A stretch of 64,000 nt of DNA from Alphaproteobacteria bacterium (GCA_963422645.2 CAXXVO010000018.1:104700-168699), one strand, 5' to 3'; positions 2,925 through 57,526 are shown, numbered from the stretch's first letter. The notes: generated by a model from the sequence alone, not told the origin. Made by a program: numbers and translations.

Positions 2925-3698
2925 TTAGCGAGAGACCTGGGCCAGCCGCAGATTGCGGATGCGCCGGCTCGCGATCTCGGCGCGCACGCGCGGGATCAGC
3001 ACGGTCAGATAGTAGGCCATGAAGCCTACCGCCATCAGCAGCAGCGGCGCGACCATGGAGCTGTCGATCGACGGCGCGTCGATCTTCGAGATCGTCGCCG
3101 GCTGGTGCAGGGTGTTCCACCAGTCGACCGAATACTTGACGATGGGGATGTTGACCACGCCCACCAGCGCCAGGATAGCGGCGACGCGGGCGCCCTTGGC
3201 GGGATCGTCGAAGGCGGCGTGGAGCGCGATGTAGCCGAGATAGAGGAAGAAGAGCACCAGCATCGAGGTGAGCCGCGCGTCCCACACCCACCAGGTGCCC
3301 CACATGGGTTGACCCCAGAGCGACCCGCTCAGGAGTGTGATGAAGGTAAAGGCTGCGCCGACCGGGGCGCTCGACTTCGCCACAAGGTCGGCGAGCGGAT
3401 GCCGCCAGACGAGGCTGGCCGCGCTGCAAAGCGCGATCACGACGTAGACGAAGAGCGACATCCACGCCGCCGGCACGTGGACGAAGATGATCCGGTAGGC
3501 GTCGCCCTGCTGATAGTCGGGCGGCGCCACGTAGAGGCCGAGCACAAGGCCGGCAACGATCAGCCCTGCCGTCGCACCCGCGGCCCATGGATAGACCGCG
3601 CGCGCAACACGGAGGAAGCGTGCCGGGTTGGCGAAAAAGTGGATGCTGGTCCATCCGGTTCTCCCTCGCTTCGTCGCGCCCGTTGCCCGTGTCGCCAT
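2925..3698 (-). CDS. ccmC: Heme exporter protein C
   Basis: HVPAAW, WGQPMWGTWWVWDARLTS (WWD motif), WWNTLHQ; start placed at ATG 3698, uncertain. Confidence 0.95.
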   Translation of the reverse strand: MATRATGATKRGRTGWTSIHFFANPARFLRVARAVYPWAAGATAGLIVAGLVLGLYVAPPDYQQGDAYRIIFVHVPAAWMSLFVYVVIALCSAASLVWRHPLADLVAKSSAPVGAAFTFITLLSGSLWGQPMWGTWWVWDARLTSMLVLFFLYLGYIALHAAFDDPAKGARVAAILALVGVVNIPIVKYSVDWWNTLHQPATISKIDAPSIDSSMVAPLLLMAVGFMAYYLTVLIPRVRAEIASRRIRNLRLAQVSR

Positions 3699-32726: not shown

Positions 32727-34051
32727 CACTAGTGTCCCATTAAAACTACAATAGAATCAGTTGCTTATCTTCGCGGCTCTGGCCCACCGGGAGTGCCTTA
32801 TGCGTAAGTAGCGCATTGAGCGGGATTTTTTCGAACAGGGTGAGGCTCAGGGTCTGTAGAATTGTGTAGAGGCTGGCATCGAGTCTCAACCTCTTCTTGA
32901 TGATGGCAATCAGGACGTAGACGGAGACTGCGATCCAGATTTGGGTCTTTACGGCATTTTCGGAGGTGCCGAAGAAGGCCTTGATGCGGAGGTTTTGCTT
33001 GATCCATTTGAAGAAGAGTTCGACCTGCCAGCGATAGCGGTAGAGCTCTGCGACGGTGAGGGGCGGAACAGCGAAGTTGTTGGTCAGGAAGTTGAAGGTC
33101 TTGTTGGTTTCAGTATCCTTGTAGCCGACCCTGCGGAGCGGCTTTGGGTAGCGGCTTTTGCTCGCCTTTCCGGTCAGGACGATGGTTTGATCGCAACGCA
33201 GTCCGGCGTCTTTGTCGACGGTACGGGAGTATTGGCGCCGGTATTTCGTGTTGGCCTTTGCGCGGATGACGAAGAAGCTTCCCGCCATATCCAGGGCGTT
33301 GAGGCGCTTGAAGTCGAGGTAGGCGCGATCCATGATGTAGAAGGCGCCGGGCTCCGGAATGATGATGTCCAGGACATTCACATCGCCGAGCTTGCCGTCG
33401 GAGATGTGAATGAAGGCCGGGATACTGCCCTGCAAGTCAAGGAGAGTGTGAAGCTTGACGGCCGACTTGGTTGAGCGGAACAGAGCCCAGGGGAAGACCG
33501 ACAGGCACAGATCGATGGTCGACGCGTCGAGAGCGTACACGGTATTGTCGAGTTGAAGACCGAGGTCCTCGCCGGCATAGAGTGGGCGTGCGATGTCGAT
33601 CAGTTCCTGGGCGAACTCGGCATAGATGCGCCAGTCGCGTTGCGCGTTGGCGTTCGCTAAAGTGTTGCGCGAGACCGGTCCCCGAATTCCCATGTGATAA
33701 AGCTTGTTATTCTGGGCACGCAGACAAATCTCGATGTCGCGCAGGCTTTCTCGATAGGACAATTGTGCGAAGGCCATGCAGAAAAACTGGCTCAGGCATG
33801 AGAACGATTTGACGTACCGATTACCATCGTATTGTTCGACGCATTTGCGGAACGAATGCAGGGGCAGATGGTCCATCACCTGCGAGAAGACAAGTTGTCC
33901 CGTGGACATGACCGGGCTCCCTCTGGATCGGAGAACCCAGCCTCGGCACTCGCGCCGGCCACTTCAAGTCGGTAACAGCGCGAAATGGCGCTTAATCGCG
34001 CTTTGTCAATAACTTAACAAGGGTCTCTCCAATTTTCTTGGGACACTAGTG
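32727..34051 (-). mobile_element. IS4-family insertion sequence
   Basis: Inverted repeats CACTAGTGTCCCA; 9-bp TSD ATCTGGTCC (32718-32726 and 34052-34060); lower GC than the host. Confidence 0.95.
32746..33909 (-). CDS. IS4-family transposase (DUF4372-type N-terminus)
   Basis: 387 aa; ALDASTI, MDRAY, YRYRWQVELFFKWIKQ (YREK motif). Confidence 0.95.
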   Translation of the reverse strand: MSTGQLVFSQVMDHLPLHSFRKCVEQYDGNRYVKSFSCLSQFFCMAFAQLSYRESLRDIEICLRAQNNKLYHMGIRGPVSRNTLANANAQRDWRIYAEFAQELIDIARPLYAGEDLGLQLDNTVYALDASTIDLCLSVFPWALFRSTKSAVKLHTLLDLQGSIPAFIHISDGKLGDVNVLDIIIPEPGAFYIMDRAYLDFKRLNALDMAGSFFVIRAKANTKYRRQYSRTVDKDAGLRCDQTIVLTGKASKSRYPKPLRRVGYKDTETNKTFNFLTNNFAVPPLTVAELYRYRWQVELFFKWIKQNLRIKAFFGTSENAVKTQIWIAVSVYVLIAIIKKRLRLDASLYTILQTLSLTLFEKIPLNALLTHKALPVGQSREDKQLILL

Positions 34052-37532: not shown

Positions 37533-39074
37533 TCAGGAGCGCAGTATAGGGATCAGCTGCATCGGTTCCGGGTGCGCCAGGATTTGCAGGATGTTCCAGC
37601 CTTGCTTTCGAGCGGTGACGATGACGCTGCGCATTCCGGCGAAGTTGCAGGCGCCTTGCAGGGAGCGGAAGCCGCCTGAGATCTTCTCATGCACTTTGTT
37701 CATACGGATGTCACGCTCCGCCTCGTTATTCGTGAACGGCGTGCGCAGGTCGGTGAGGAAGCGCAGGCAGCCCTCCTTATGCTTTTGAAGGCGGCGCGCG
37801 AGGTTGTGGCCGATGCGGCGTTTCTTTCGCCCTCGCTTTGCGATCTGGAGCGGCGGTTGGGCCTCATGGAAGGCGATGGCTTCTTCGAGGATACGGTCCC
37901 ATGCCCTTGAGATGCGGGCCACCAGGGAGGCGGGGACTTGACGGTCTTTCTCACGGGCGAAGCGGGCGGCCCTGCGCGCGCGCTGAAGCAGGCGGTGCAT
38001 GCTCGCCGCCCATTCCTCCTTCTCGATGTCGATCAGGGCCTGGAGTTCGCGCAGGTGATGTGCGTTGCAGGCGCCGTGGCGGACGCCCTTGATGGTGAAG
38101 TAGGGGGCGAAGTCGTCGTGGACGAGGATGCCTTTCAGGTTCTTTTCGACACCGCGCGCGCTCACCTCGCCGATGCGCAGGACGGTGAGCAACGGGGTGC
38201 ACAGCACATGGAGCCAGCGGGTACGGGCGGCGATACGCAGGCCGGTCTCGTCGAGGTGCTTGACCGGCGCCTGCGTGCGGATCAGATCGGCGACATGGTC
38301 GAGGAAGCCCTCGAAGCGCTGCGCTGTGCGCCGGCCCATGGCGGCGATCGTGGCAGTGGAGATGGACACCGCGAAGATGTCGCTCATGAGTTCGGCCAGA
38401 CGCTTCTCGGGCACGAACTGGGCGTACAGCAGGTAACTCACCCAAGCGGTGATGCGAGGGCCGTACTGGACCGGGGCGGTGACGCCCGGCGGGAAGGCGG
38501 CTCGTGTCAGCGTGCCGCATGCGCCGCAGAGGCAGCGATGGGCGCGGTGTTCGGTGACCTCGAGAGGCTGCGGCTCGGGTACGTCGAAGACCTGCCGACA
38601 GGCGGGCGCGCCTTGCCGGTCGGCGTCCGAGAGCTCGACGCCACAGCCGGAACAGGTGGAGGGGTGGTGATCGACGACACGGTCCGGGCTGTCGCTCCGC
38701 GCGAGGGTGGTTCCCTTGTGGCCGGGCTGGCCGCCACTGGGCCCGCCGGACTTTCCGCGCTGGCTTTGGGTGCGCCTCTGGGCTCCGCTTTTCTTCTTGA
38801 GCCCGTCGCTGGCGGGGGGCTTGCTGCTTGTGGTGCTGTTGAGGGCCGCGCTGCGCTCGAGTTCGGCGATGCGCTCGCGCAGGGCCGCGTTCTCCTGCTC
38901 GAGTGCGGCATTTTCCCGGGCGAGCGCGGTGGCTGATCGCAGCAGCCCCTGCCCCCATTCCCGGACGGCAACGACGACAGTGGTTGCGAGGGATGATGGC
39001 TCGAGAAGCTCCTTCAGGCAGCAGAAGGCCTCGTTACGGGCGGCGAGGTCTTCGTGCCAGTGCGACACCGTCAC
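37533..39074 (-). CDS. IS66-family transposase (TnpC-like)
   Basis: Coiled coil, NSTTSSKPPASD, GGQPGHKG, CxxC zinc ribbons, HLDETG, CNAHHLREL, TNNEAERDIR; GTG start overlaps the methylase stop. Confidence 0.93.
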   Translation of the reverse strand: MTVSHWHEDLAARNEAFCCLKELLEPSSLATTVVVAVREWGQGLLRSATALARENAALEQENAALRERIAELERSAALNSTTSSKPPASDGLKKKSGAQRRTQSQRGKSGGPSGGQPGHKGTTLARSDSPDRVVDHHPSTCSGCGVELSDADRQGAPACRQVFDVPEPQPLEVTEHRAHRCLCGACGTLTRAAFPPGVTAPVQYGPRITAWVSYLLYAQFVPEKRLAELMSDIFAVSISTATIAAMGRRTAQRFEGFLDHVADLIRTQAPVKHLDETGLRIAARTRWLHVLCTPLLTVLRIGEVSARGVEKNLKGILVHDDFAPYFTIKGVRHGACNAHHLRELQALIDIEKEEWAASMHRLLQRARRAARFAREKDRQVPASLVARISRAWDRILEEAIAFHEAQPPLQIAKRGRKKRRIGHNLARRLQKHKEGCLRFLTDLRTPFTNNEAERDIRMNKVHEKISGGFRSLQGACNFAGMRSVIVTARKQGWNILQILAHPEPMQLIPILRS

Positions 39075-39736
39075 GTGTCTTCGGCCTCGACGGCCATCAT
39101 GGCGGCGAGCACGGCGAGGCGTTCGCCCGGCGGCAAGGCCTGGTAGCGCCGGCCCCAGTTGGCTGCCTTGCGCTTGATGCGCTGGCGGTCGGTGAAGTTC
39201 CGGCCTGCGTGGCTGGCCCAATGCATCCGGTCGGGGGCGTAGTTGAACCAGACGACCTCGGTTCGCACCAGACCCTGGGTCGTGACCTGCAGCGCCAGCC
39301 GGCGCCATCCCGCCAGCACCTCGTCATAGAGCGCCGACGGATGGCCCGAGATCATGACCTGGCAGGGCAGAGCCTTGAGCAGCGCGAGAAGCGCGACGTG
39401 GCCGGCCTCCTCGTACTCGAAGCGGTAGCGCTGCGCCGAGCGGCGGGTCGCGTGCAGATAGGGCGGATCGCTGTAAACCAGCTCCGGGCCCAGGAACGGG
39501 AACGAGGCCAGGAAGTCATGGGCACAGCCGTGAACCAGATCGACCGGGTAGTCGCAGACGAAGGCCTCGAGCGCCTGCGCATCGCGGTCGATGCCGATCG
39601 AACGCACGGCCGGCGGCTTGCGCTTCATCAGCGCCCCGCCCCCAAGGTGGCTTTCGATGTAGACGGAGTGCGGCGGCATCAGCGCAATCAGCGCTTGGCA
39701 CAGACCTGCTGTCGCCTTCGAGCCGAAATACCCCAT
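39071..39736 (-). CDS. DNA N6-adenine methyltransferase (small Dam-like)
   Basis: YFGSK, YIESHLGGG (motif I), YSDPPY (motif IV), VMISG, TEVVWFNY. Confidence 0.88.
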   Translation of the reverse strand: MGYFGSKATAGLCQALIALMPPHSVYIESHLGGGALMKRKPPAVRSIGIDRDAQALEAFVCDYPVDLVHGCAHDFLASFPFLGPELVYSDPPYLHATRRSAQRYRFEYEEAGHVALLALLKALPCQVMISGHPSALYDEVLAGWRRLALQVTTQGLVRTEVVWFNYAPDRMHWASHAGRNFTDRQRIKRKAANWGRRYQALPPGERLAVLAAMMAVEAEDT

Positions 39737-50204: not shown

Positions 50205-51361
50205 TGTAGACGGACGAAAGTCGTTGTGAATCGGGTCAAGGGGTGGAATCAGGCGGAATCGGGCGGAAGGTGGCGGAATCTCAAGGGGATGCGCGGCGGC
50301 ACGGTGGCGGTGCGGCGGCTGGCGTGCGGACGGAAGTCTTTGCGAATCGGGCCGTGCAGAGGCCGTGAATTGGCTGGAAACGGCAATTTTCGGGGCGTTT
50401 CAGGGGTCTTGCGACGGCGGCAAATCGGGTCGGTTTCGGGGTATCGGATTCGGCTGGAAAATCCGGTGCGTGGCGCCCGTCCCGCGAGGCTGGCGGCGGC
50501 CCGCGCCGGGGCGCTGAATCGGCTTGAGATGGCGTGCGGCGGCGCGTAGGGTGAGCGTGGCGTCGGAAGCAGCAGTCCTCTCATGCCTTCGGGCGAGCGC
50601 GGGGTTTGCGACCCGCCCGGCGCCTCACTTCCCATCCCTCCTGATCGGCCCGAAGCGTCGCCTTGTGACATCGAGGTCAGCGGCCTTCGACCTGTGCAGG
50701 CTCACGATGTAGGCCTCGTCGCCACCTGCGGCCGACTTGACGACGGCCTTCCACAGGCACCCGTCCTCTTCGAGGAAGCCCTGCGCGAAACGGCCGTTGT
50801 CCTCCACGAACATCTCCCCTTGATCGAGGATGCGCTGGAGGCGGGCGTAGTCTGCGGGTTCGAGATCGGGGTGTCGCCTGGCCTGCTTTGCGGCGGTTTC
50901 TGCGGAGAGGCGGGCGGTTCGGGAGCGTGCGCCGATGGCGGCCATGACCGGGCCTCCGAGCACGGCCGCGGGCCAGTCGGCGTCGGACCGGCCTTCGAGG
51001 TGGCGGCGGAAGAGCGCGCCGTTCCAGGGTTGGCCTATGGCGGCGCGTGCGAGGTCGGGGGGCGCGTCGTCGATCTTCTCGATCAGGCGGTTTGCGCTGT
51101 CGCGGCCCGGCCGGGCGCGGCCGGCGTTGTGCTGGAAGCCGGGATCGATGCCGGCGGGGACCTGGTGGATGCGGCCGGTGCGGCGGTTCTTCCAGGGCCT
51201 GGTGCGCCCGGAGCCGGGCGGCGGACCCTCGGACACCTTGTATCCGTAGCGTTCGAGGTCGTCGTCTCCGAGCTGCTGGACGATGCAGCGGCACTTCCAT
51301 CCGTTGGGCGGGTAGTGGGTCTTCCAGAAGGGGTGATCGACGGGGAGCACGGTGCCGTGCC
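50205..51361. mobile_element. Second Mu-like prophage relic, left end only
   Basis: Starts TGTAG; motif copies at 50212-50232 and 50328-50348; homologous to 31911-32093; carries a MuF fragment. Confidence 0.8.
50625..51361 (-). pseudogene. Phage Mu gpF-like head protein 3' fragment with a putative BECR-type nuclease extension
   Basis: HGTVLPVDHPFWKTHYPPNGWKCRC and GIDPGF are typical of MuF; extra C-terminal domain of about 115 aa; N-terminus missing. Confidence 0.8.
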
Positions 51362-51527
51362 TGGTGGACGCGGCCGGTGAGCGCGCGCGGTCTTTCAGCG
51401 GGGATCGGGGCCTGATCCGCTCGGATTTGTTGAGGTTTTGGGGCGGGTGCCCCTCGGCGAACTTGCAAGAAGTTCGCCGGGGGGCTTTGTCTCGTGGTGA
51501 CGGTCACAATCGCCAGAGACGGCCCCA

Positions 51528-52145
51528 ATGTCGCACAACATTTTCCGCCACTCCATGCTTTGCAACGCCCTGGTCTGGGCCTGGCTGCGCGAGGTCGATG
51601 AGGCCGAGGCGGCGCGCTGCCGCGAGGCGGGCTGCCGACACTGCCCCGGCAAGCTGCACAGCGCGACGTATCCGCGCAAGCCGTACGGTCTGGCAGCCGA
51701 GTTGAGGGAAGAGGGCACGCGGCGGTTCAGCTTCTGCTGCGCGGATTGCCGCCTGCGAGCGACCCCACCATCGGTACGATTCTTCGGGCGCCGCTTTTAT
51801 CTGGGCGCCCTGTTCGTTCTGTTGAGTGCACTGGTTCTGAGAGGCGGGGTGCGGTTGCAGACGATCAAGCGGAAGTGGGGGGTCTCGGTCGCCACACTGC
51901 GCCGCTGGCGGAAGTGGTGGCTGGAGGCGTTCCCGGCGACGGAGCCCTGGGGAGCGAAGCGTGGCGAACTGGTGATGCCACCCGAGGAGGTGCCGCTGCT
52001 CTTCGTGCTGCGGCAGATGCGGGGCGGACGCTTCGGTGAGCGTCTGTTCCTGAGCCTGATCTGGTTCAAGCCGTGGACGGGCTATTGCGGGCTCGGCGAT
52101 GGCTCGGCGCCGCCCGCAGAAAGTGTTCCTGTCACGCCCGGATAG
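51528..52145 (+). CDS. Transposon accessory protein (Cys-rich Zn-binding plus HTH-like)
   Basis: CRHC...CCADC, TPPSVRF, GVSVATLRRW; directly upstream of the transposase. Confidence 0.7.
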   Translation: MSHNIFRHSMLCNALVWAWLREVDEAEAARCREAGCRHCPGKLHSATYPRKPYGLAAELREEGTRRFSFCCADCRLRATPPSVRFFGRRFYLGALFVLLSALVLRGGVRLQTIKRKWGVSVATLRRWRKWWLEAFPATEPWGAKRGELVMPPEEVPLLFVLRQMRGGRFGERLFLSLIWFKPWTGYCGLGDGSAPPAESVPVTPG

Positions 52146-52194
52146 GGCGTTCTACATGGGCATCTCTCCGATGCGGCGAGGGAGGGATGCCGGA

Positions 52195-53670
52195 ATGGAC
52201 AAGGACGACGCGGGCGCCAGGCGCGAGAAGTGGGCCCGGCTGCGCTTTGCGGTGGTGGGGCCGCTTCTGGCTTCACCGCCGCCTGCAGGCCAGCTGGGGG
52301 CCGAGTTCGAGCGTCTGTCGCAGCGCGACTGGGAGCACCCGTCGGGCAAGGGGCCGGTGCGCTTTGCGGCCTCGACGATCGAGCGCTGGTACTACCGGGC
52401 GCGGGCAGAGGAGCAGGACCCGGTCAAGGCGCTGCGCCGGAAGCCTCGGACCGACGTCGGCCGCGAGCGGTCCATGTCGGCGGGGCTGATCGCGGCGCTG
52501 CGCGAGCAGTACCGGGTCCATCCCTCGTGGGCGGCGCAGCTCCACTACGAGACCCTCAAGGCTCATGTTGCGACCCATCCCGAGCTCGGCCCGATGCCGT
52601 CCTACGCGACGCTGACGCGGGCGATGCGCAATCGCGGCCTGGTGCGCGAGCGCCCCAGGAAGTGGCACGAGGGTGAGGACAAGCCGGCGGTCGAAGCCCG
52701 CGAGGTCCTTAGCTACGAGGTGTCTCGCAGTCACGCGCTGTGGCACGGGGACTTCCACCACGGCAAGCGCCGCGTGCTGACGGCGTCGGGCGAATGGCAG
52801 ACGCCCATCCTGCTCGGCTTCCTCGACGACCACTCCAGGCTTGGCTGCCACCTGCAGTGGTACCTGGAGGAGACCGCCGAGGTCTTCGTCCACGGGCTCT
52901 GTCAGGCCTTCATGAAGAGGGACTTGCCCAGGTCCCTGCTGACCGACAACGGCGGGCCGATGACGGCGGGCGAGGTCGAGGAGGGCTTGCACCGCCTCGG
53001 CATCGTGGGGGCCACGACACTCGCTTACAGCCCCCATCAAAATGGAAAAATCGAGTCGTTCTGGGGCACGGTCGAGGGCCGCCTGATGGCTCAGCTCGAA
53101 GGCGTCGACGCGCTCACCCTGAAGATGCTCAACGACGCCACCATAGCCTGGCTGGAGCAGGACTACCATCGGCGGGTGCACCGCGAGCTCGGCATGACGC
53201 CGCATGAACGCCTCGCCGGGAGCGTCAAGGCATCGAGGCCCTGCCCCGCCTCGGACGAGCTCAAGGCGGCCTTCCGCATCGCCAGGAAGCGCACGCTCAG
53301 GCGCTCGGACGGCACCGTCTCGGTCGAGGGCATCCGCTACCAGGTGCCACAGCCGTGGCGCCACCTGAGGACGCTCTGGGTCCGCTATGCGCGCTGGGAC
53401 CTCAGCGGCGTCGATCTGGTGGAAGGCCGAAGCGGCGAGCGGCTGTGCACGCTGTACCCCCTCGACAAGCGCGGCAACGCCGATGGCGTCCGCCGTCCTG
53501 CGAGACCCGGCAGCGACCATGGCGGCGCCAGCGCGGGCGTCGGCGAACTTCCGCCGCTGCTCAAGGGCGTGCTCGACGCCCAGGCCGCAACAGGCCTGCC
53601 GCCGGCCTGGGTACCCCATAACAAGACGCCCGGTCCGGGCGAGGACGACGATCAGGGAGATCCGTCATGA
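52195..53670 (+). CDS. DDE integrase-core (Mu/rve-type) transposase
   Basis: HTH (STIERWYY), WHGDFH, DDHSR, TDNGG, NGKIESFW; Mu-like C-terminal DGTVSVEGIRY. Confidence 0.9.
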   Translation: MDKDDAGARREKWARLRFAVVGPLLASPPPAGQLGAEFERLSQRDWEHPSGKGPVRFAASTIERWYYRARAEEQDPVKALRRKPRTDVGRERSMSAGLIAALREQYRVHPSWAAQLHYETLKAHVATHPELGPMPSYATLTRAMRNRGLVRERPRKWHEGEDKPAVEAREVLSYEVSRSHALWHGDFHHGKRRVLTASGEWQTPILLGFLDDHSRLGCHLQWYLEETAEVFVHGLCQAFMKRDLPRSLLTDNGGPMTAGEVEEGLHRLGIVGATTLAYSPHQNGKIESFWGTVEGRLMAQLEGVDALTLKMLNDATIAWLEQDYHRRVHRELGMTPHERLAGSVKASRPCPASDELKAAFRIARKRTLRRSDGTVSVEGIRYQVPQPWRHLRTLWVRYARWDLSGVDLVEGRSGERLCTLYPLDKRGNADGVRRPARPGSDHGGASAGVGELPPLLKGVLDAQAATGLPPAWVPHNKTPGPGEDDDQGDPS

Positions 53671-54500
53671 ACCGCGAGCTGCTCACCTTCTACGGGCTCA
53701 AATGGAACCCCTTCGCCACCGACCTTCCGGTCGACAGCCTCATGGTGAGCCCCGCCGTCGACAGCTTCTGCCTCAGAATCGAGCATCATCTTGTGCGCCA
53801 GGGCGGCTTCGCGTTGATCGCCGGCGAGCCCGGCACCGGAAAGAGCGTGGCGTTGCGCGTGCTCGCCGACCGCCTCGGCCGCTCGGACGGGCTCAGGGTC
53901 TGTGCCATCACCCACCCCTCTTCCAGGCTGTCCGACTTCTACCGCGAGATCGGCGGGATGTTCGGCGTCGACCTGATGTACAACAACCGCTGGGCCAGCT
54001 TCAAAAACCTGCGCGAGCGATGGCTCACCCATGTCGACGACACCCGCATGCGGCCCGTGGTGCTCATCGACGAGGCCCAGGAGCTGCTGCCCTCGGTGAT
54101 CTCCGAGATCCGCCTGCTGGCGTCCACCGACTTCGACTCGCGCGCCATCCTCTCGGTCGTCTTCGCCGGCGACAGCCGCCTGATCGACAGGCTCCGCCAG
54201 CCCGACTTGCAGCCCATCGCCTCGCGCCTGCGCCAGCGCCTGGTCATGACCCAGGCAGACGCCGGCGACCTCGCGGCCCTGCTCGACCATCTGGTCGAGC
54301 AGGCCGGCAATCCGGGCCTCATGAGCGCAGAGCTCAAGGACACCCTGGTCACCCACGCCGGCGGCAACCCCAGGGCGCTTACCGTCATGGGCGACATGCT
54401 GCTCGCCGCCGGCGCCGAGAAGAACCGCGAGGTTCTCGACGAGAAGCTCTTCATGGAGATCCTGGGCGAGCCCGCCAAGCCGAAGAGGGCACGGCGGTGA
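53667..54500 (+). CDS. ExeA-like AAA+ ATPase (transposition helper)
   Basis: FYGLKWNPF, GEPGTGKS, LIDEAQ, SRL, GNPR; ATGA overlap with the transposase. Confidence 0.9.
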   Translation: MNRELLTFYGLKWNPFATDLPVDSLMVSPAVDSFCLRIEHHLVRQGGFALIAGEPGTGKSVALRVLADRLGRSDGLRVCAITHPSSRLSDFYREIGGMFGVDLMYNNRWASFKNLRERWLTHVDDTRMRPVVLIDEAQELLPSVISEIRLLASTDFDSRAILSVVFAGDSRLIDRLRQPDLQPIASRLRQRLVMTQADAGDLAALLDHLVEQAGNPGLMSAELKDTLVTHAGGNPRALTVMGDMLLAAGAEKNREVLDEKLFMEILGEPAKPKRARR

Positions 54501-55495
54501 AGGGCTTCCCGACACGGGCGCCGATGCAGCTCGAGGATCGCCCCCGGGCGCAACAGTGGATGGTGGACACGCTGTGGGCCGAGCAGGCCGTGGGCATCGT
54601 CGGCGGCGAGCCCAAGTGCGGCAAATCCCTGCTCGCGCTCGATCTCGCCGTCGCCGTGGCCACCGGCGTCCCATGCCTGCGCCACTACCGCCCCAGCGCA
54701 AGCGGCACCGTGCTGCTCTTCGCCGCCGAGGACGCCGGCCACAGGGTGCGCAAGCGTCTGCAGGGGATCGCCCGCGCCGCCGCCACCCCCTTCGACGAAC
54801 TCGACATCGCCGTCATCGACGTGCCCACCCTGCGTCTCGACCAGCGCATCGACCGTCAGCGCCTGCAGGAGACCGTGGAGCGCATCGAACCGCGCCTCCT
54901 GATCCTCGATCCCCTGGTCCGCCTGCACAGCGTCGACGAGAACGCCGTCGCAGAGATCGCCCCCATCCTCGGCTTCCTGCGCGAACTGCAGCGCCGCTTC
55001 GAAACCGCCGTCCTCCTCGTCCACCACGCCCGCAAGAGCGGCGGCACCCGGCCGGGGCAGGCCCTGCGCGGGAGCAGCGAGCTGCACGCTTGGGGTGACT
55101 CAAATCTGTACCTGCGCCGGCGCGACAAGAAGATCGTCATGACGGTCGAGCAGCGCGACGCCCGGGGCCTCAACGACATCGAGCTGGAACTCGTCGACGG
55201 CGGACATGGGCCGGCCTTCCGTCTGCACCAGGACGCGGCAGATGAAGACAGGCACGAGCCCGCCACCGTCGAGCAGCGCGTCTTCAAGGCGATCGAGCAG
55301 GCCGAAAAGCCGCTCTCGAAAGCCCAGATCCGCTCACGCGCCGCTGCCCGCAACGCCACCGTCGTTGCCGCCATCGAGAGCCTCACCAGGGAGGGGCGCA
55401 TCGAACGGGCGCCCAGGGGTGGCTATCGCCTCGCAGCCGCCGAGGCGCACCGGGAGCCGCAATCCCCTGCCGCCATCAACGGAAGTGCGGGATGA
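54497..55495 (+). CDS. AAA_25 / RepA-like RecA-fold helicase with C-terminal winged HTH
   Basis: GEPKCGKS, FAAED, LLILDPL, VHHARK, LRGSS; GTGA overlap with the ExeA-like gene. Confidence 0.82.
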   Translation: MKGFPTRAPMQLEDRPRAQQWMVDTLWAEQAVGIVGGEPKCGKSLLALDLAVAVATGVPCLRHYRPSASGTVLLFAAEDAGHRVRKRLQGIARAAATPFDELDIAVIDVPTLRLDQRIDRQRLQETVERIEPRLLILDPLVRLHSVDENAVAEIAPILGFLRELQRRFETAVLLVHHARKSGGTRPGQALRGSSELHAWGDSNLYLRRRDKKIVMTVEQRDARGLNDIELELVDGGHGPAFRLHQDAADEDRHEPATVEQRVFKAIEQAEKPLSKAQIRSRAAARNATVVAAIESLTREGRIERAPRGGYRLAAAEAHREPQSPAAINGSAG

Positions 55496-55556
55496 GGCGT
55501 TCCCGTTCCCGTTCCCGGAACTCTTAAGCGTTGAAGGGTACAGGAACGGGAACGCC
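55496..55556. repeat. Inverted repeat with GTTCCC iterons (candidate origin)
   Basis: GGCGTTCCCGTTCC (55496-55509) and GGAACGGGAACGCC (55543-55556) form a perfect 14-bp IR; three tandem GTTCCC; AT-richer spacer. Confidence 0.6.
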
Positions 55557-55597
55557 GTCAGCCTCCCTTCCAAGCAGACCTTCGCCGGGACCCGGCA

Positions 55598-56467
55598 ATG
55601 AGCGGCGGCGATCCCCTGGCCACCTGCCGCAACATCCCCCTCGACCGGGTCGCCGCCGCCCTCGGCTACCGCAGAGACCCGACCGACCGGGCGCGCTTCA
55701 AGCGCGGGGGCTCGGTCATCAGCATCAACGGCGAGAAGTTCTTCGATCACCTGCGCGGCACGGGAGGGGGTGGCGCCATCGACCTCGTCATCCATGCGAC
55801 GGGATGCCGCTTCCCGGAAGCCCTCCGCTTCCTCGGAAGCCATGAGGGGCGGAGGGAGATCACCACCATCCCAGCCGCCCCGCGACGCCTGCGGCTGCCA
55901 AGGCCCAGTCCCCGCGCCTGGCCCAGGGTCCGGGACGCCCTCATCCGCCAACGCGCTATCGGCACCGACGTGCTCGAAGCCTGCCACGGCCGAGGCCTCC
56001 TCTACGCCGATGACAGGATCAACGCCGTCTTCATCTGCCGAAACGCCAGCGGGCACACGACCGGCGCCGAGATCCTCGGCACCGCGCCGCAGCCCGGAAC
56101 AAAACGCTTCAGGGGCATGGCCCCGGGATCGCGCAAGGCGCGTGGCGGCTTCTGGCTCCACTGCGACCGAAACCAGCCCGCCCTCGTCATCCTCACCGAG
56201 AGCGCCGTCGACGCCATCTCTGCACGAAGCCTGCGCGTCGAGGGGACGCGCGAGAACGGCGCCGTCGTCGCCTCAACCGCCGGCATCGCCAGCTCGGTCC
56301 CGCCCTGGATCAAGGAGTGGAAGCCACGTCGCATCGTCTGTGCCTACGACGCAGACAGCGCCGGCGACACTGCCGCCGAGCATCTCGTGCTCAACGATCC
56401 AAGGGTGAAAAGGTTGCGCCCACGACACGCCAAGGACTGGAACGAGATGCTCCTGCGGTCTCGATGA
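55598..56467 (+). CDS. TOPRIM-domain primase-like protein (DUF3991-type)
   Basis: GGGAIDLV N-domain, TESAVDAIS (Toprim Glu), AYDADSAG (DxD), KDWNE. Confidence 0.85.
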   Translation: MSGGDPLATCRNIPLDRVAAALGYRRDPTDRARFKRGGSVISINGEKFFDHLRGTGGGGAIDLVIHATGCRFPEALRFLGSHEGRREITTIPAAPRRLRLPRPSPRAWPRVRDALIRQRAIGTDVLEACHGRGLLYADDRINAVFICRNASGHTTGAEILGTAPQPGTKRFRGMAPGSRKARGGFWLHCDRNQPALVILTESAVDAISARSLRVEGTRENGAVVASTAGIASSVPPWIKEWKPRRIVCAYDADSAGDTAAEHLVLNDPRVKRLRPRHAKDWNEMLLRSR

Positions 56468-56563
56468 AAGCCAGGCCACTCACCGCTCTCGCAGATCAAC
56501 CAAGCGCCGCATCACGAACATCAAATAATCCGAAAACCGCACCATCAAATGCTGGGCGCACGC

Positions 56564-57526
56564 TCAGCGCTACGACAGCCTGAGGGAGGCCGGTCATGGA
56601 GCGTCATGATGTGCTGGAGATGATGACCCAGCTGAAGCTCGCAGGTATGCGCGCCGCTTACGACGACATCCTTGCCGACGGGCTCAAGCGCCGCCATCCG
56701 GTGCAACAGATCATCGGTACGCTGCTGCAGGTCGAGATCGCCGACAAGAGGGCCCGCTCGATCAAGTACCAGATGGCCTCCGCCAAGCTGCCGACGGTCA
56801 AGGAGCTGGCCGACTTCGACTTCGCCGCCTCGCCGGTCAACGAGCCCCTGATCCAGGAGCTCGCCGGCGGCGGCTTCCTCGAGGGCAAACGCAACATCGT
56901 GCTGGTCGGCGGCACCGGTACCGGCAAGACCCATCTCGCCGTCGCCATCGCGCGGTCCTGCATCCGCAAGGGCGCGCGCGGCCGGTGCTACAACGTCGTC
57001 GACCTGGTCAACCTCCTCGAGGCCGAGCTTCGCGCCGGACGCCAGGGCCGCACTGCAGACCAGCTCGTCCGCCGCGACTTCGTCATCCTCGACGAGCTCG
57101 GCTACCTGCCCTTCGCCCAGGCCGGTGGGCAGCTGCTCTTCCATCTGATGAGCCGGCTCTACGAGCGCACCTCGATCGTCATCACCACAAACCTCGCCTT
57201 CGGCGAATGGCCATCCGTCTTCGGCGACCCCAAGATGACCACAGCGCTGCTCGATCGCCTCACCCATCATTGCGAGATCATCGAGACCGGCAACGAGAGC
57301 TGGCGCTTCAAGAACCGCTCCTGACCCGCCGCCGGCCTCCCTTGCGGCCCGGTTGCCCCGGTGGGCCAACAGGGACCCCCCACGCGGCTTCGCTCCGCGT
57401 AGCGCAGGGCGCCACACGAAGCCGCGCGGGTCCCCCCTATTGGCTACCGGGACAACCTCCGCCGTGCCACTCAGGGGGGTCAATTTTGCACGCCGATCGG
57501 GGGTCAGTATTGAAAGCCGATTGACA
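56564..57526 (+). mobile_element. Truncated IS21 copy (istA tail, istB, right end)
   Basis: 963 bp matching 35031-35993 by inspection; ends TTGACA. Confidence 0.93.
56596..57324 (+). CDS. istB: IS21 helper ATPase IstB (second copy)
   Basis: Translation identical to 35063-35791. Confidence 0.96.

Follow-up and report, generated by a model that had tools for sequence, protein, structure and literature searches.

Phage Mu (MuA and MuB), Tn7 (TnsB and TnsC), Tn552, Tn5053 and IS21 (IstA and IstB) all pair an rve-type DDE transposase with an adjacent regulatory ATPase, have TG...CA ends with several subterminal sites and make duplications of 4–5 bp. To our knowledge, none of them encodes its own replicative helicase or primase. 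Phage Mu relies on the host restart primosome, and recruitment of the replisome to the strand-transfer intermediate is understood in detail only for Mu, via host restart proteins. Here we describe a transposon that shares this general layout (its subterminal sites are putative, and its ATPase is of the ExeA/AAA_22 type, not IstB or TniB) and carries in addition a helicase-like and a primase-like gene. The element occupies positions 51378–56566 of a 64,000-nucleotide stretch of DNA (the window) from an Alphaproteobacteria bacterium (GCA_963422645.2, CAXXVO010000018.1:104700-168699). An earlier reading of the window, made from the sequence alone (the sequence-only reading), had singled it out as a transposon with its own helicase–origin–primase module.

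The closest described relative is Tn6049, a 3.5-kb transposon present in 12 copies in Cupriavidus metallidurans CH34, all with a gspA-like ATPase gene (according to an excerpt of PMC2864759), and reported with 12-bp imperfect terminal inverted repeats and 4-bp direct repeats (in the part of PMC4739549 that treats it). A tblastn search of plasmids returned transposases 48% identical to ours on C. metallidurans megaplasmids and on Pseudomonas aeruginosa pHS87a, and these loci are Tn6049. The pMOL28 copy measures 3517 bp between its published inverted repeats, and its three genes are 41%, 48% and 50% identical to the first three genes of the window element, in the same order (tblastn). The two share a small open reading frame (ORF) with cysteines and a helix-turn-helix (HTH), an IS481-like DDE transposase and a GspA/ExeA-like ATPase, as well as short imperfect terminal repeats starting with TG, direct repeats in the 4-bp range and many copies per genome. 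Judged by these identities and this gene order, the core of the element is that of the named but barely characterised Tn6049 family. Unlike the window element (5189 bp, five genes), Tn6049 (∼3.5 kb, three genes) stops after the ATPase gene and lacks the AAA_25 gene, the Toprim gene and the hexamer inverted repeat (the pMOL28 copy gave no match to our model of that repeat); its terminal sequence is TGTGCATAAGCA as opposed to TGAGCGCGCGC.

The sequence-only reading had not recognised the architecture as a named family. This does not hold for the core, which is Tn6049, and it stands for the four- and five-gene forms. In the full-text literature (ISfinder, TnCentral and supplements lay outside the scope of the search) we found no description of helicase- or primase-bearing Tn6049, IS481-like or IS21-like elements. 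As far as this search shows, what is new is the helicase- and primase-bearing forms, a hexamer repeat linked to the helicase gene and an IS21-like counterpart; the Tn6049 core was already known. We suggest that the helicase, a loading site and the primase make up a module that serves the DNA synthesis step of replicative transposition in what would be an enlarged Tn6049-family element. From sequence comparisons and structural models, we give this reading a probability of roughly one half.

Ends, copies and size classes of the element

A BLAST comparison of window positions 50800–57400 with the rest of the genome (5.9 Mb in 23 contigs; completeness 99.6%, contamination 8.5%) delimited a repeat that starts exactly at 51378 and stops exactly at 56566 (5189 bp). 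The genome holds eight uninterrupted copies (5189–5192 bp; 99.8%–100% identity), and 24 left and 27 right ends. One right end is an 89%-identical relic; the 24 left and 26 other right ends are >95% identical, and the multicopy boundaries are exact at 99.3%–100% identity. All 24 left ends read TGAGCGCGCGCGGTC and the 26 near-identical right ends finish with GGGCGCACGCTCA. Because the genomic left and right ends are so uniform, we take the 11-nt terminal inverted repeat (10 of 11 positions matching) to be real. The ends and inverted termini proposed in the sequence-only reading are accordingly exact to the base.

The left end (51378–51450, forward strand) consists of the terminal repeat TGAGCGCGCGC and two subterminal repeats, TTTCAGCGG at about +19 and TTGTTGAGG at about +51. 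At the right end (56497–56566, reverse strand), the terminal repeat (reverse complement TGAGCGTGCGC) is accompanied by two TTTGATG subterminal repeats. The internal inverted motif noticed earlier near 51421 and 56517 belongs to these TTGATGG-like subterminal repeats. Relatives from five other genomes carry such repeats at either end and have the same layout, with TGAGCG-type termini and two subterminal TTGATGG-like repeats per side. From this arrangement, the subterminal repeats are presumed to be transposase binding sites.

Conserved ends and target-site duplications (TSDs) had been named as features to look for. The ends are shared with relatives as described, and TSDs of 4–5 bp (ACAT, CCGT, TTCCC, CCTTG and GCAGG) flank five of the 13 physically linked left/right pairs; as a control, 3.1% of 610 unlinked left/right combinations match over at least 4 bp. 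The remaining eight linked pairs, the window's own copy included, have no TSD. Taken with the exact boundaries, we conclude that 51378–56566 is a real, recently active 5.2-kb transposon.

Several copies are split by other insertion sequences (ISs) or by contig ends. Four are broken by two other ISs of 2159 bp (C8:591889-594047 and C19:10810-12968) and 1764 bp (C18:66194-67957 and C11:81206-82969). Each of these breaks shows a 4-nt overlap of element coordinates, and the 2159-bp insert has CCCAGGTTGGCA-type inverted ends. Two further junctions are internal to the family. At C3:164349/164350 an element right end runs directly into position 3358 of another copy, and at C6:432375 a left end is joined to position 3608 of an oppositely oriented copy; these nested or self-insertions argue against strong target immunity.

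Five co-oriented ORFs of the kinds proposed earlier lie within the ends, which sets the element apart from the single-gene ISs of the IS481 family. The first (51528–52145, forward strand) encodes a Cys-rich protein of 205 amino acids (aa; P0001) with an HTH (HTH_23, E 0.0018, below the cut-off). It is a conserved first gene (tblastn places matches to it 5' of the DDE gene at most of the 80 loci introduced below) and is 41% identical to the first ORF of Tn6049, where it is annotated as "transposase." Some of its ESM Atlas neighbors combine DUF6431 with an HTH, which we regard as a lead only. The protein is a candidate regulator or target- or end-binding factor.

The second gene (52195–53670, forward strand; ORF open from 52099) encodes an IS481-like and MuA-like DDE transposase (rve, rve_3, HTH_32). 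IS481 (NCBIfam NF033577) is its best-scoring IS family, at 117.3 bits, below the cut-off of 224. Homologs are ∼491 aa long and M33 is the first invariant alignment column, so the start is probably M33 at 52195, and the transposase gene then does not overlap the first ORF. The third gene (53667–54500, forward strand) encodes a 277-aa ExeA/GspA-like ATPase (AAA_22, 6e-19), 50% identical to that of Tn6049. The transposase matches the transposase family phrog_310 (6e-35) and the ATPase matches phrog_296, a "DNA transposition protein" (6e-19), which places the family among DDE transposons with a dedicated ATPase; by these matches, the ATPase is presumed to be a transposition regulator of the MuB/TnsC/IstB type. 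The ATGA (53667–53670) and GTGA (54497–54500) overlaps that had been proposed to couple the transposase, ATPase and helicase genes are present.

We collected relatives by scanning one genome per species with a transposase alignment, which yielded 80 loci, and then searched these with the five proteins by tblastn. Relatives came from, among others, Pseudomonadota, Acidobacteriota, Myxococcota, Planctomycetota, Verrucomicrobiota and Gemmatimonadota metagenome-assembled genomes. Half of the loci (40/80) have the core only; sequence extends ≥1.1 kb past the ATPase gene in 20 of these and less far in the other 20. An AAA_25 gene follows the ATPase directly in 39 loci across several phyla. Of these, 34 were found without a Toprim gene (downstream sequence is long enough to exclude one in 26), and five, from three genomes, have all five genes, with one copy interrupted. 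One locus gave no ATPase match.

True ends of relatives were read from the block shared by several copies within one genome. This gave three-gene units of 3268–3397 bp, four-gene units with AAA_25 of 4355–4384 bp in other genomes, and a five-gene unit of 5161 bp in OZ219747, whose proteins are only 47%–64% identical to those of the window. The helicase-like and Toprim genes therefore lie inside the transposed unit both here and in other genomes (the helicase-like gene alone in the 4355- to 4384-bp units), as the sequence-only reading had supposed. It had also named, as an outcome that would count against it, related transposase–ATPase units that end before the helicase gene. About half of the units do so, and the rest do not. 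The existence of the three-gene forms implies that helicase and primase are not needed for the transposition chemistry of the family.

The helicase gene, its linked repeat and the primase gene

The fourth gene (54497–55495, forward strand) overlaps the ATPase stop codon through the GTGA and encodes a candidate RepA-like, RecA-fold helicase of 332 aa (AAA_25, 3e-36) whose C-terminal part is a winged-helix domain. By sequence, the one clear relative of known structure is the hexameric helicase RepA of RSF1010 (8e-9). In searches with an AlphaFold model (predicted local distance difference test [pLDDT] 80), RSF1010 RepA (1nlf, 1g8y, 1olo) took ranks 1–4 (E 3e-11; template modeling [TM] score, normalized to the target, 0.67–0.71), followed by RadA, DnaB, Rad51 and KaiC. 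Across 29 AAA_25 sequences, the Walker A (GGEPKCGKS), Walker B, HHxxK and RGSS motifs do not vary, and the winged-helix domain is conserved. The protein is thus a candidate RepA-type hexameric helicase, with its activity predicted from sequence and fold.

The sequence-only reading had assigned this gene to the transposition unit, and its evolutionary history bears this out. Pairwise identities of AAA_25 and transposase are strongly correlated across 25 elements (Mantel r 0.87; none of 2000 permutations as high), and the same comparison for ATPase and transposase gave r 0.94. The AAA_25 tree repeats the major transposase clades. The window element falls in a fully supported clade of the transposase tree with 11 rows, all of which have AAA_25, with Toprim patchy among them. 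In 400 other genomes of the class, no AAA_25 relative exceeded 36% identity, save one truncated transposon-type copy at 45%. Co-divergence and shared clades suggest that the AAA_25 gene has long been resident in the transposon. In addition, all 42 AAA_25 ORFs inspected are uninterrupted.

These data bear on an alternative in which the helicase-like and Toprim genes are passengers, cargo without a role in movement that is useful to the host or damaging to competitors (through interference with phage or plasmid replication, for instance). Transposons often carry passengers, and the three-gene forms move without the two genes. Toprim and ATPase pairs also occur in defense systems, and the Toprim part has a weak PADLOC match to a DnaG-like retron/DRT component (3e-9). 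Against this stand the absence of any PADLOC match for the AAA_25 protein, the translational coupling of its gene to the transposition operon and the way the gene has been kept across phyla, diverging with the transposase and with no ORF broken. The preservation of an intact gene by a selfish element in hosts of many phyla suggests that the element itself gains from it, and we regard a passenger role as unlikely.

Directly after the AAA_25 stop codon (55496–55556) lies a conserved inverted repeat composed of (GTTCCC)x3, a loop with CTTAAG, and GGAAC/GGGAAC repeats. As single-stranded DNA it would fold into a hairpin of −22.1 kcal/mol (z −5.24). The same structure occurs 3' of the AAA_25 gene in every relative looked at. 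The hexamer unit differs by lineage (GTTCCC, GTTACC, GTTTCC, GCTTCC or ATTTCC), with all copies of both arms changing together. In a 24-sequence alignment, changes on both sides were seen at eight of 13 pairs. The 49 cells concerned exceed the 16.3 of shuffled alignments (none of 500 reached this count), and slid controls scored far lower.

A covariance model of the repeat matches all 27 AAA_25-bearing sources that include the region, 24 of which are training rows; of the three others (L025, L039 and L048), L039 and L048 are close kin of training rows. The 31 sources that lack AAA_25, among them Tn6049, gave no match, and neither did any other sequence in the 682 kb searched. A second model search matched L099 and missed the distant five-gene relatives L137 and L139, whose repeats, seen by eye, are shorter, with two hexamers per arm. 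A simple repeat pattern occurs 26 times in the 5.9-Mb genome, and 24 of these occurrences are element copies. The helicase gene and the repeat are thus strictly linked, and the repeat is mobilized with the five genes as a single unit. A cis-acting repeat inherited with the helicase gene is also not what a passenger role would lead one to expect.

In all five-gene forms examined the repeat stands between the helicase and primase genes, as an origin would in the helicase–origin–primase module of the sequence-only reading, and in some four-gene forms it directly adjoins the right end's innermost presumed transposase site. We consider it a candidate helicase loading site, single-strand initiation site or origin. 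That the tandem units of an arm change in concert would be expected if a protein evolving with the repeat recognized every unit, and the winged-helix tail of the helicase would be the obvious candidate. Farther downstream, a motif (TTCCAAGCAG or TTCCAAGTAG) is found ∼20–50 nt 5' of the Toprim start in the window (55568–55580) and in L017, L018, L137 and L139. It is kept in five-gene relatives as distant as 38% protein identity and may be a promoter or regulatory site.

The fifth gene (55598–56467, forward strand) encodes a 289-aa protein with a degenerate zinc-binding-like N terminus, DUF3991 (1.7e-10) and Toprim (Toprim_2, 3.3e-9). The listed Foldseek matches of its AlphaFold2 model (pLDDT 89.8) with E ≤0.001 are all primases (Aquifex DnaG, T7 gp4, T4 gp61, Twinkle and DnaG catalytic cores) and extend across the whole RNA-polymerase domain, not the Toprim core alone. 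In the model, the first 85 residues adopt a fold like that of a zinc-binding domain (weak match to 1d0q), and the Glu and DxD residues E201, D251 and D253 are conserved in 48 sequences. Together, sequence and model make the protein a candidate DnaG-type primase. The protein database contains >60 clusters of it at ≥70% identity, nearly all 285–290 aa long, and several of these are on contigs of 5.18–5.3 kb, about the length of one element. Among 400 sampled genomes of the phylum there was only one distant match, and the five-gene form is rare in that sample. A complex prediction for the AAA_25 and Toprim proteins scored 0.00, below threshold, and is evidence neither way.

Homologs of this primase candidate also occur in other transposons. 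A four-gene Tn6049-like relative has a different fifth gene after the repeat (L035:4061-5029), encoding 322 aa with a CHC2 DnaG zinc ribbon and Toprim_2, a canonical DnaG-like primase that was apparently acquired independently. Scanning metagenomes with the Toprim-protein alignment gave 80 loci, three of which have Tn6049-like neighbors. At L100:267-1933, a locus cut by the contig start, a Toprim homolog (46%) comes directly after an AAA_22 ATPase (29% identical to that of the window), with no AAA_25 between them. In 53 of the 80 loci, a Toprim homolog (37%–41% identical) comes directly after an IstB gene. The full gene set of this separate IS21-like, five-gene element (∼5 kb) is present in 27 of these 53, on contigs of ∼5–6 kb (L113:110-4692; also L103, L104, L112, L123, L125 and others), in the order 190-aa ORF, ParB/KorB-HTH protein (311 aa), IstA-like HTH protein (506 aa), IstB (PF01695) and DUF3991–Toprim. 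From the IstB–Toprim and Tn6049-like loci it follows that the primase clade is mostly transposon-borne and joined to two unrelated transposase-plus-ATPase families. The attachment of one Toprim clade to a second transposon family again speaks against a passenger role.

The same loci can be read in favor of accessory roles outside replication, in which the RecA-fold ATPase would act in target choice, immunity or transpososome remodeling, and the Toprim protein would be a second-strand nuclease (TnsA-like) or end processor. In the IS21-like relatives and L100, the Toprim gene comes straight after the transposition ATPase, with no helicase between. Heteromeric transposons use several accessory ATPases, and Tn7 uses a second nuclease. 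The Toprim fold also serves nucleases, yet nucleases and other proteins of this fold (JetD, RecR) match our model only at E ≥0.01, and the matches to primases over the entire polymerase domain speak against such a role. So do the identity of the nearest structure to the AAA_25 ATPase, a replicative helicase, and the canonical zinc-ribbon primase that L035 carries in the same position. We consider accessory roles of this kind quite improbable.

A possible role in transposon DNA synthesis

In our preferred reading, that the module serves DNA synthesis in replicative transposition, an enlarged Tn6049 lineage would long ago have taken in a RepA-like helicase gene together with its cognate hexamer inverted repeat, and a sub-lineage that includes the window copy would also have taken in a DnaG-type primase gene. 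The transposase and the ATPase would first make a strand-transfer (or copy-out) intermediate. The helicase would be loaded at or near the repeat via its winged-helix tail and would then unwind the element, the primase would lay primers, and the host polymerase could then copy the element with no need for a restart primosome from the host. Replicative transposition would gain in efficiency or host range, and the cutting and joining chemistry would be independent of the module.

Several points weigh against this reading. Three-gene relatives (Tn6049 and the 3.3- to 3.4-kb multicopy units) spread with neither helicase nor primase, so transposition as such can do without the module. The sequence-only reading had named, as a further outcome that would count against it, a helicase–primase pair not conserved with the transposase and ATPase; AAA_25 co-diverges with the transposase, and 34 of the 39 helicase-bearing genome loci lack a primase. 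Moreover, co-divergence is a sign of long residence in the element and not of a role in transposition. The primase candidate has no Zn_ribbon_DnaG match and no conserved Cys/His set in its alignment, and it ends about three residues past the Toprim domain, without the C-terminal helicase-binding domain of DnaG. Complementarity of the repeat arms alone would equally fit a plain RNA or DNA hairpin such as a terminator. The replicative mode of Tn6049-family transposition is itself an assumption. Finally, the TSD-less pairs may stem from intramolecular (replicative) events or from recombination among the ∼25 near-identical copies; their flanks, being GC-rich, pair with many 4-nt matches and are ambiguous between the two.

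The resemblance of the module to plasmid replication genes raises a further possibility. RSF1010 and other IncQ plasmids have a module of RepA helicase, RepB' primase, RepC and an oriV with iterons and single-strand initiation (ssi) hairpins, and RepB' is a primase of a different type from DnaG/Toprim. The window element is similar in that RepA is the best sequence and fold match of AAA_25, the primase gene lies next to the helicase gene, and a hairpin-capable, iteron-like repeat lies between them. It differs in having no RepC-like initiator, in the C-terminal winged helix of its helicase and in the location of the module inside a DDE transposon.

The element might accordingly be a self-replicating episome, excised as a circle and kept as a plasmid-like or satellite replicon by the helicase, the repeat (as origin) and the primase. 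A RepA-like helicase (by its fold matches) and a primase are the two dedicated enzymes of RSF1010-type replicons, and the conserved repeat between their genes would fit as well. IS481- and IS21-related families are also listed with circular intermediates in the portion of bioRxiv 10.1101/2023.06.07.543989 that concerns them. On the other side, the five ORFs include neither a RepC-like initiator nor a polymerase, helicase-only four-gene forms are commoner among genome loci, and the copies found in the assembly are all integrated. Contigs from three sequencing runs (X1, X2 and X5) contained no circle joints, although contigs cannot show rare forms, and contig word depths disagreed from run to run and from flank to flank, the flanks being repeats themselves. 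On balance, we find an episomal lifestyle improbable.

Casposons and Polintons bring a family B polymerase of their own and integrate through Cas1 or retroviral-type integrases. Together with IEE, they resemble the window element as mobile elements or helpers that supply replication-type enzymes for a transposition cycle. Unlike casposons and Polintons, the window element has no polymerase domain in its five ORFs, and its RepA-like and DnaG-like enzymes are encoded within the transposon. IEE, which enhances IS excision, is described in the relevant excerpt of bioRxiv 10.1101/2023.06.07.543989 as an AEP PrimPol fused to a UvsW-like helicase that is not part of the IS.

Genomic surroundings and implications for transposons

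The sequence-only reading had placed the element inside a Mu-like prophage relic, and this was not borne out. Pfam scans of 20 large ORFs at 20–64 kb of the window detected no Mu-like phage genes and instead revealed an aspartyl-tRNA synthetase (AspRS), a class II ribonucleotide reductase, a Rieske oxygenase, a penicillin amidase, a histidine kinase, and IS transposases and debris. Other transposases in the window lie at 32746–33909 and 37533–39308 (DDE_Tnp_1 with DUF4372, and IS66-family), and the genome is heavily loaded with ISs. The GC content of the region is 0.61–0.73 across the profiled part.

The two flanks of the element are not one interrupted sequence. On the right (56567–57400) is an IstB gene fragment (IstB_IS21, 3e-75) with no IstA before it; this sequence recurs with 100% identity at about 10 other places in the genome, in alignments that start at window positions 56564–56567, so that either the element lies within an IS21-family copy or a repeat boundary falls exactly there. 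The left flank (50800–51361) is another repeat, with copies of 100%, 94% and 86% identity, a 99% partial copy, and no Pfam match in its ORFs. At C14:57102-57663 the left-flank sequence lies 3 bp from the right end of another element copy, in the opposite arrangement, which could reflect a preferred target or a trace of rearrangement.

Taken together, our results suggest that, in some cases, bacterial transposons bring their own tools for starting DNA synthesis. More tentatively, it is possible that AAA+-partnered DDE transposons have repeatedly acquired their own priming machinery, a transposon-encoded primosome independent of host restart. In the enlarged Tn6049 elements this would comprise the RepA-like helicase, the hexamer-repeat loading site and the DnaG-like primase, and in the separate IS21-like elements a homologous primase beside IstB, with a ParB-like protein. 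The presence of the same primase clade in IS21-like elements suggests a general phenomenon. In genome annotation, such helicase and primase genes should not be mistaken for leftovers of plasmids or phages. If this broader view is correct, elements with a transposon-encoded primosome would form a functional class of their own, new and intermediate between plain transposons and the self-synthesizing ones. A transposon of this kind would also offer a compact and widespread system for studying the requirements for initiating DNA synthesis on a transposition intermediate, with parts that can be mutated and swapped between hexamer lineages, and it could explain the very broad host range of the family across phyla.

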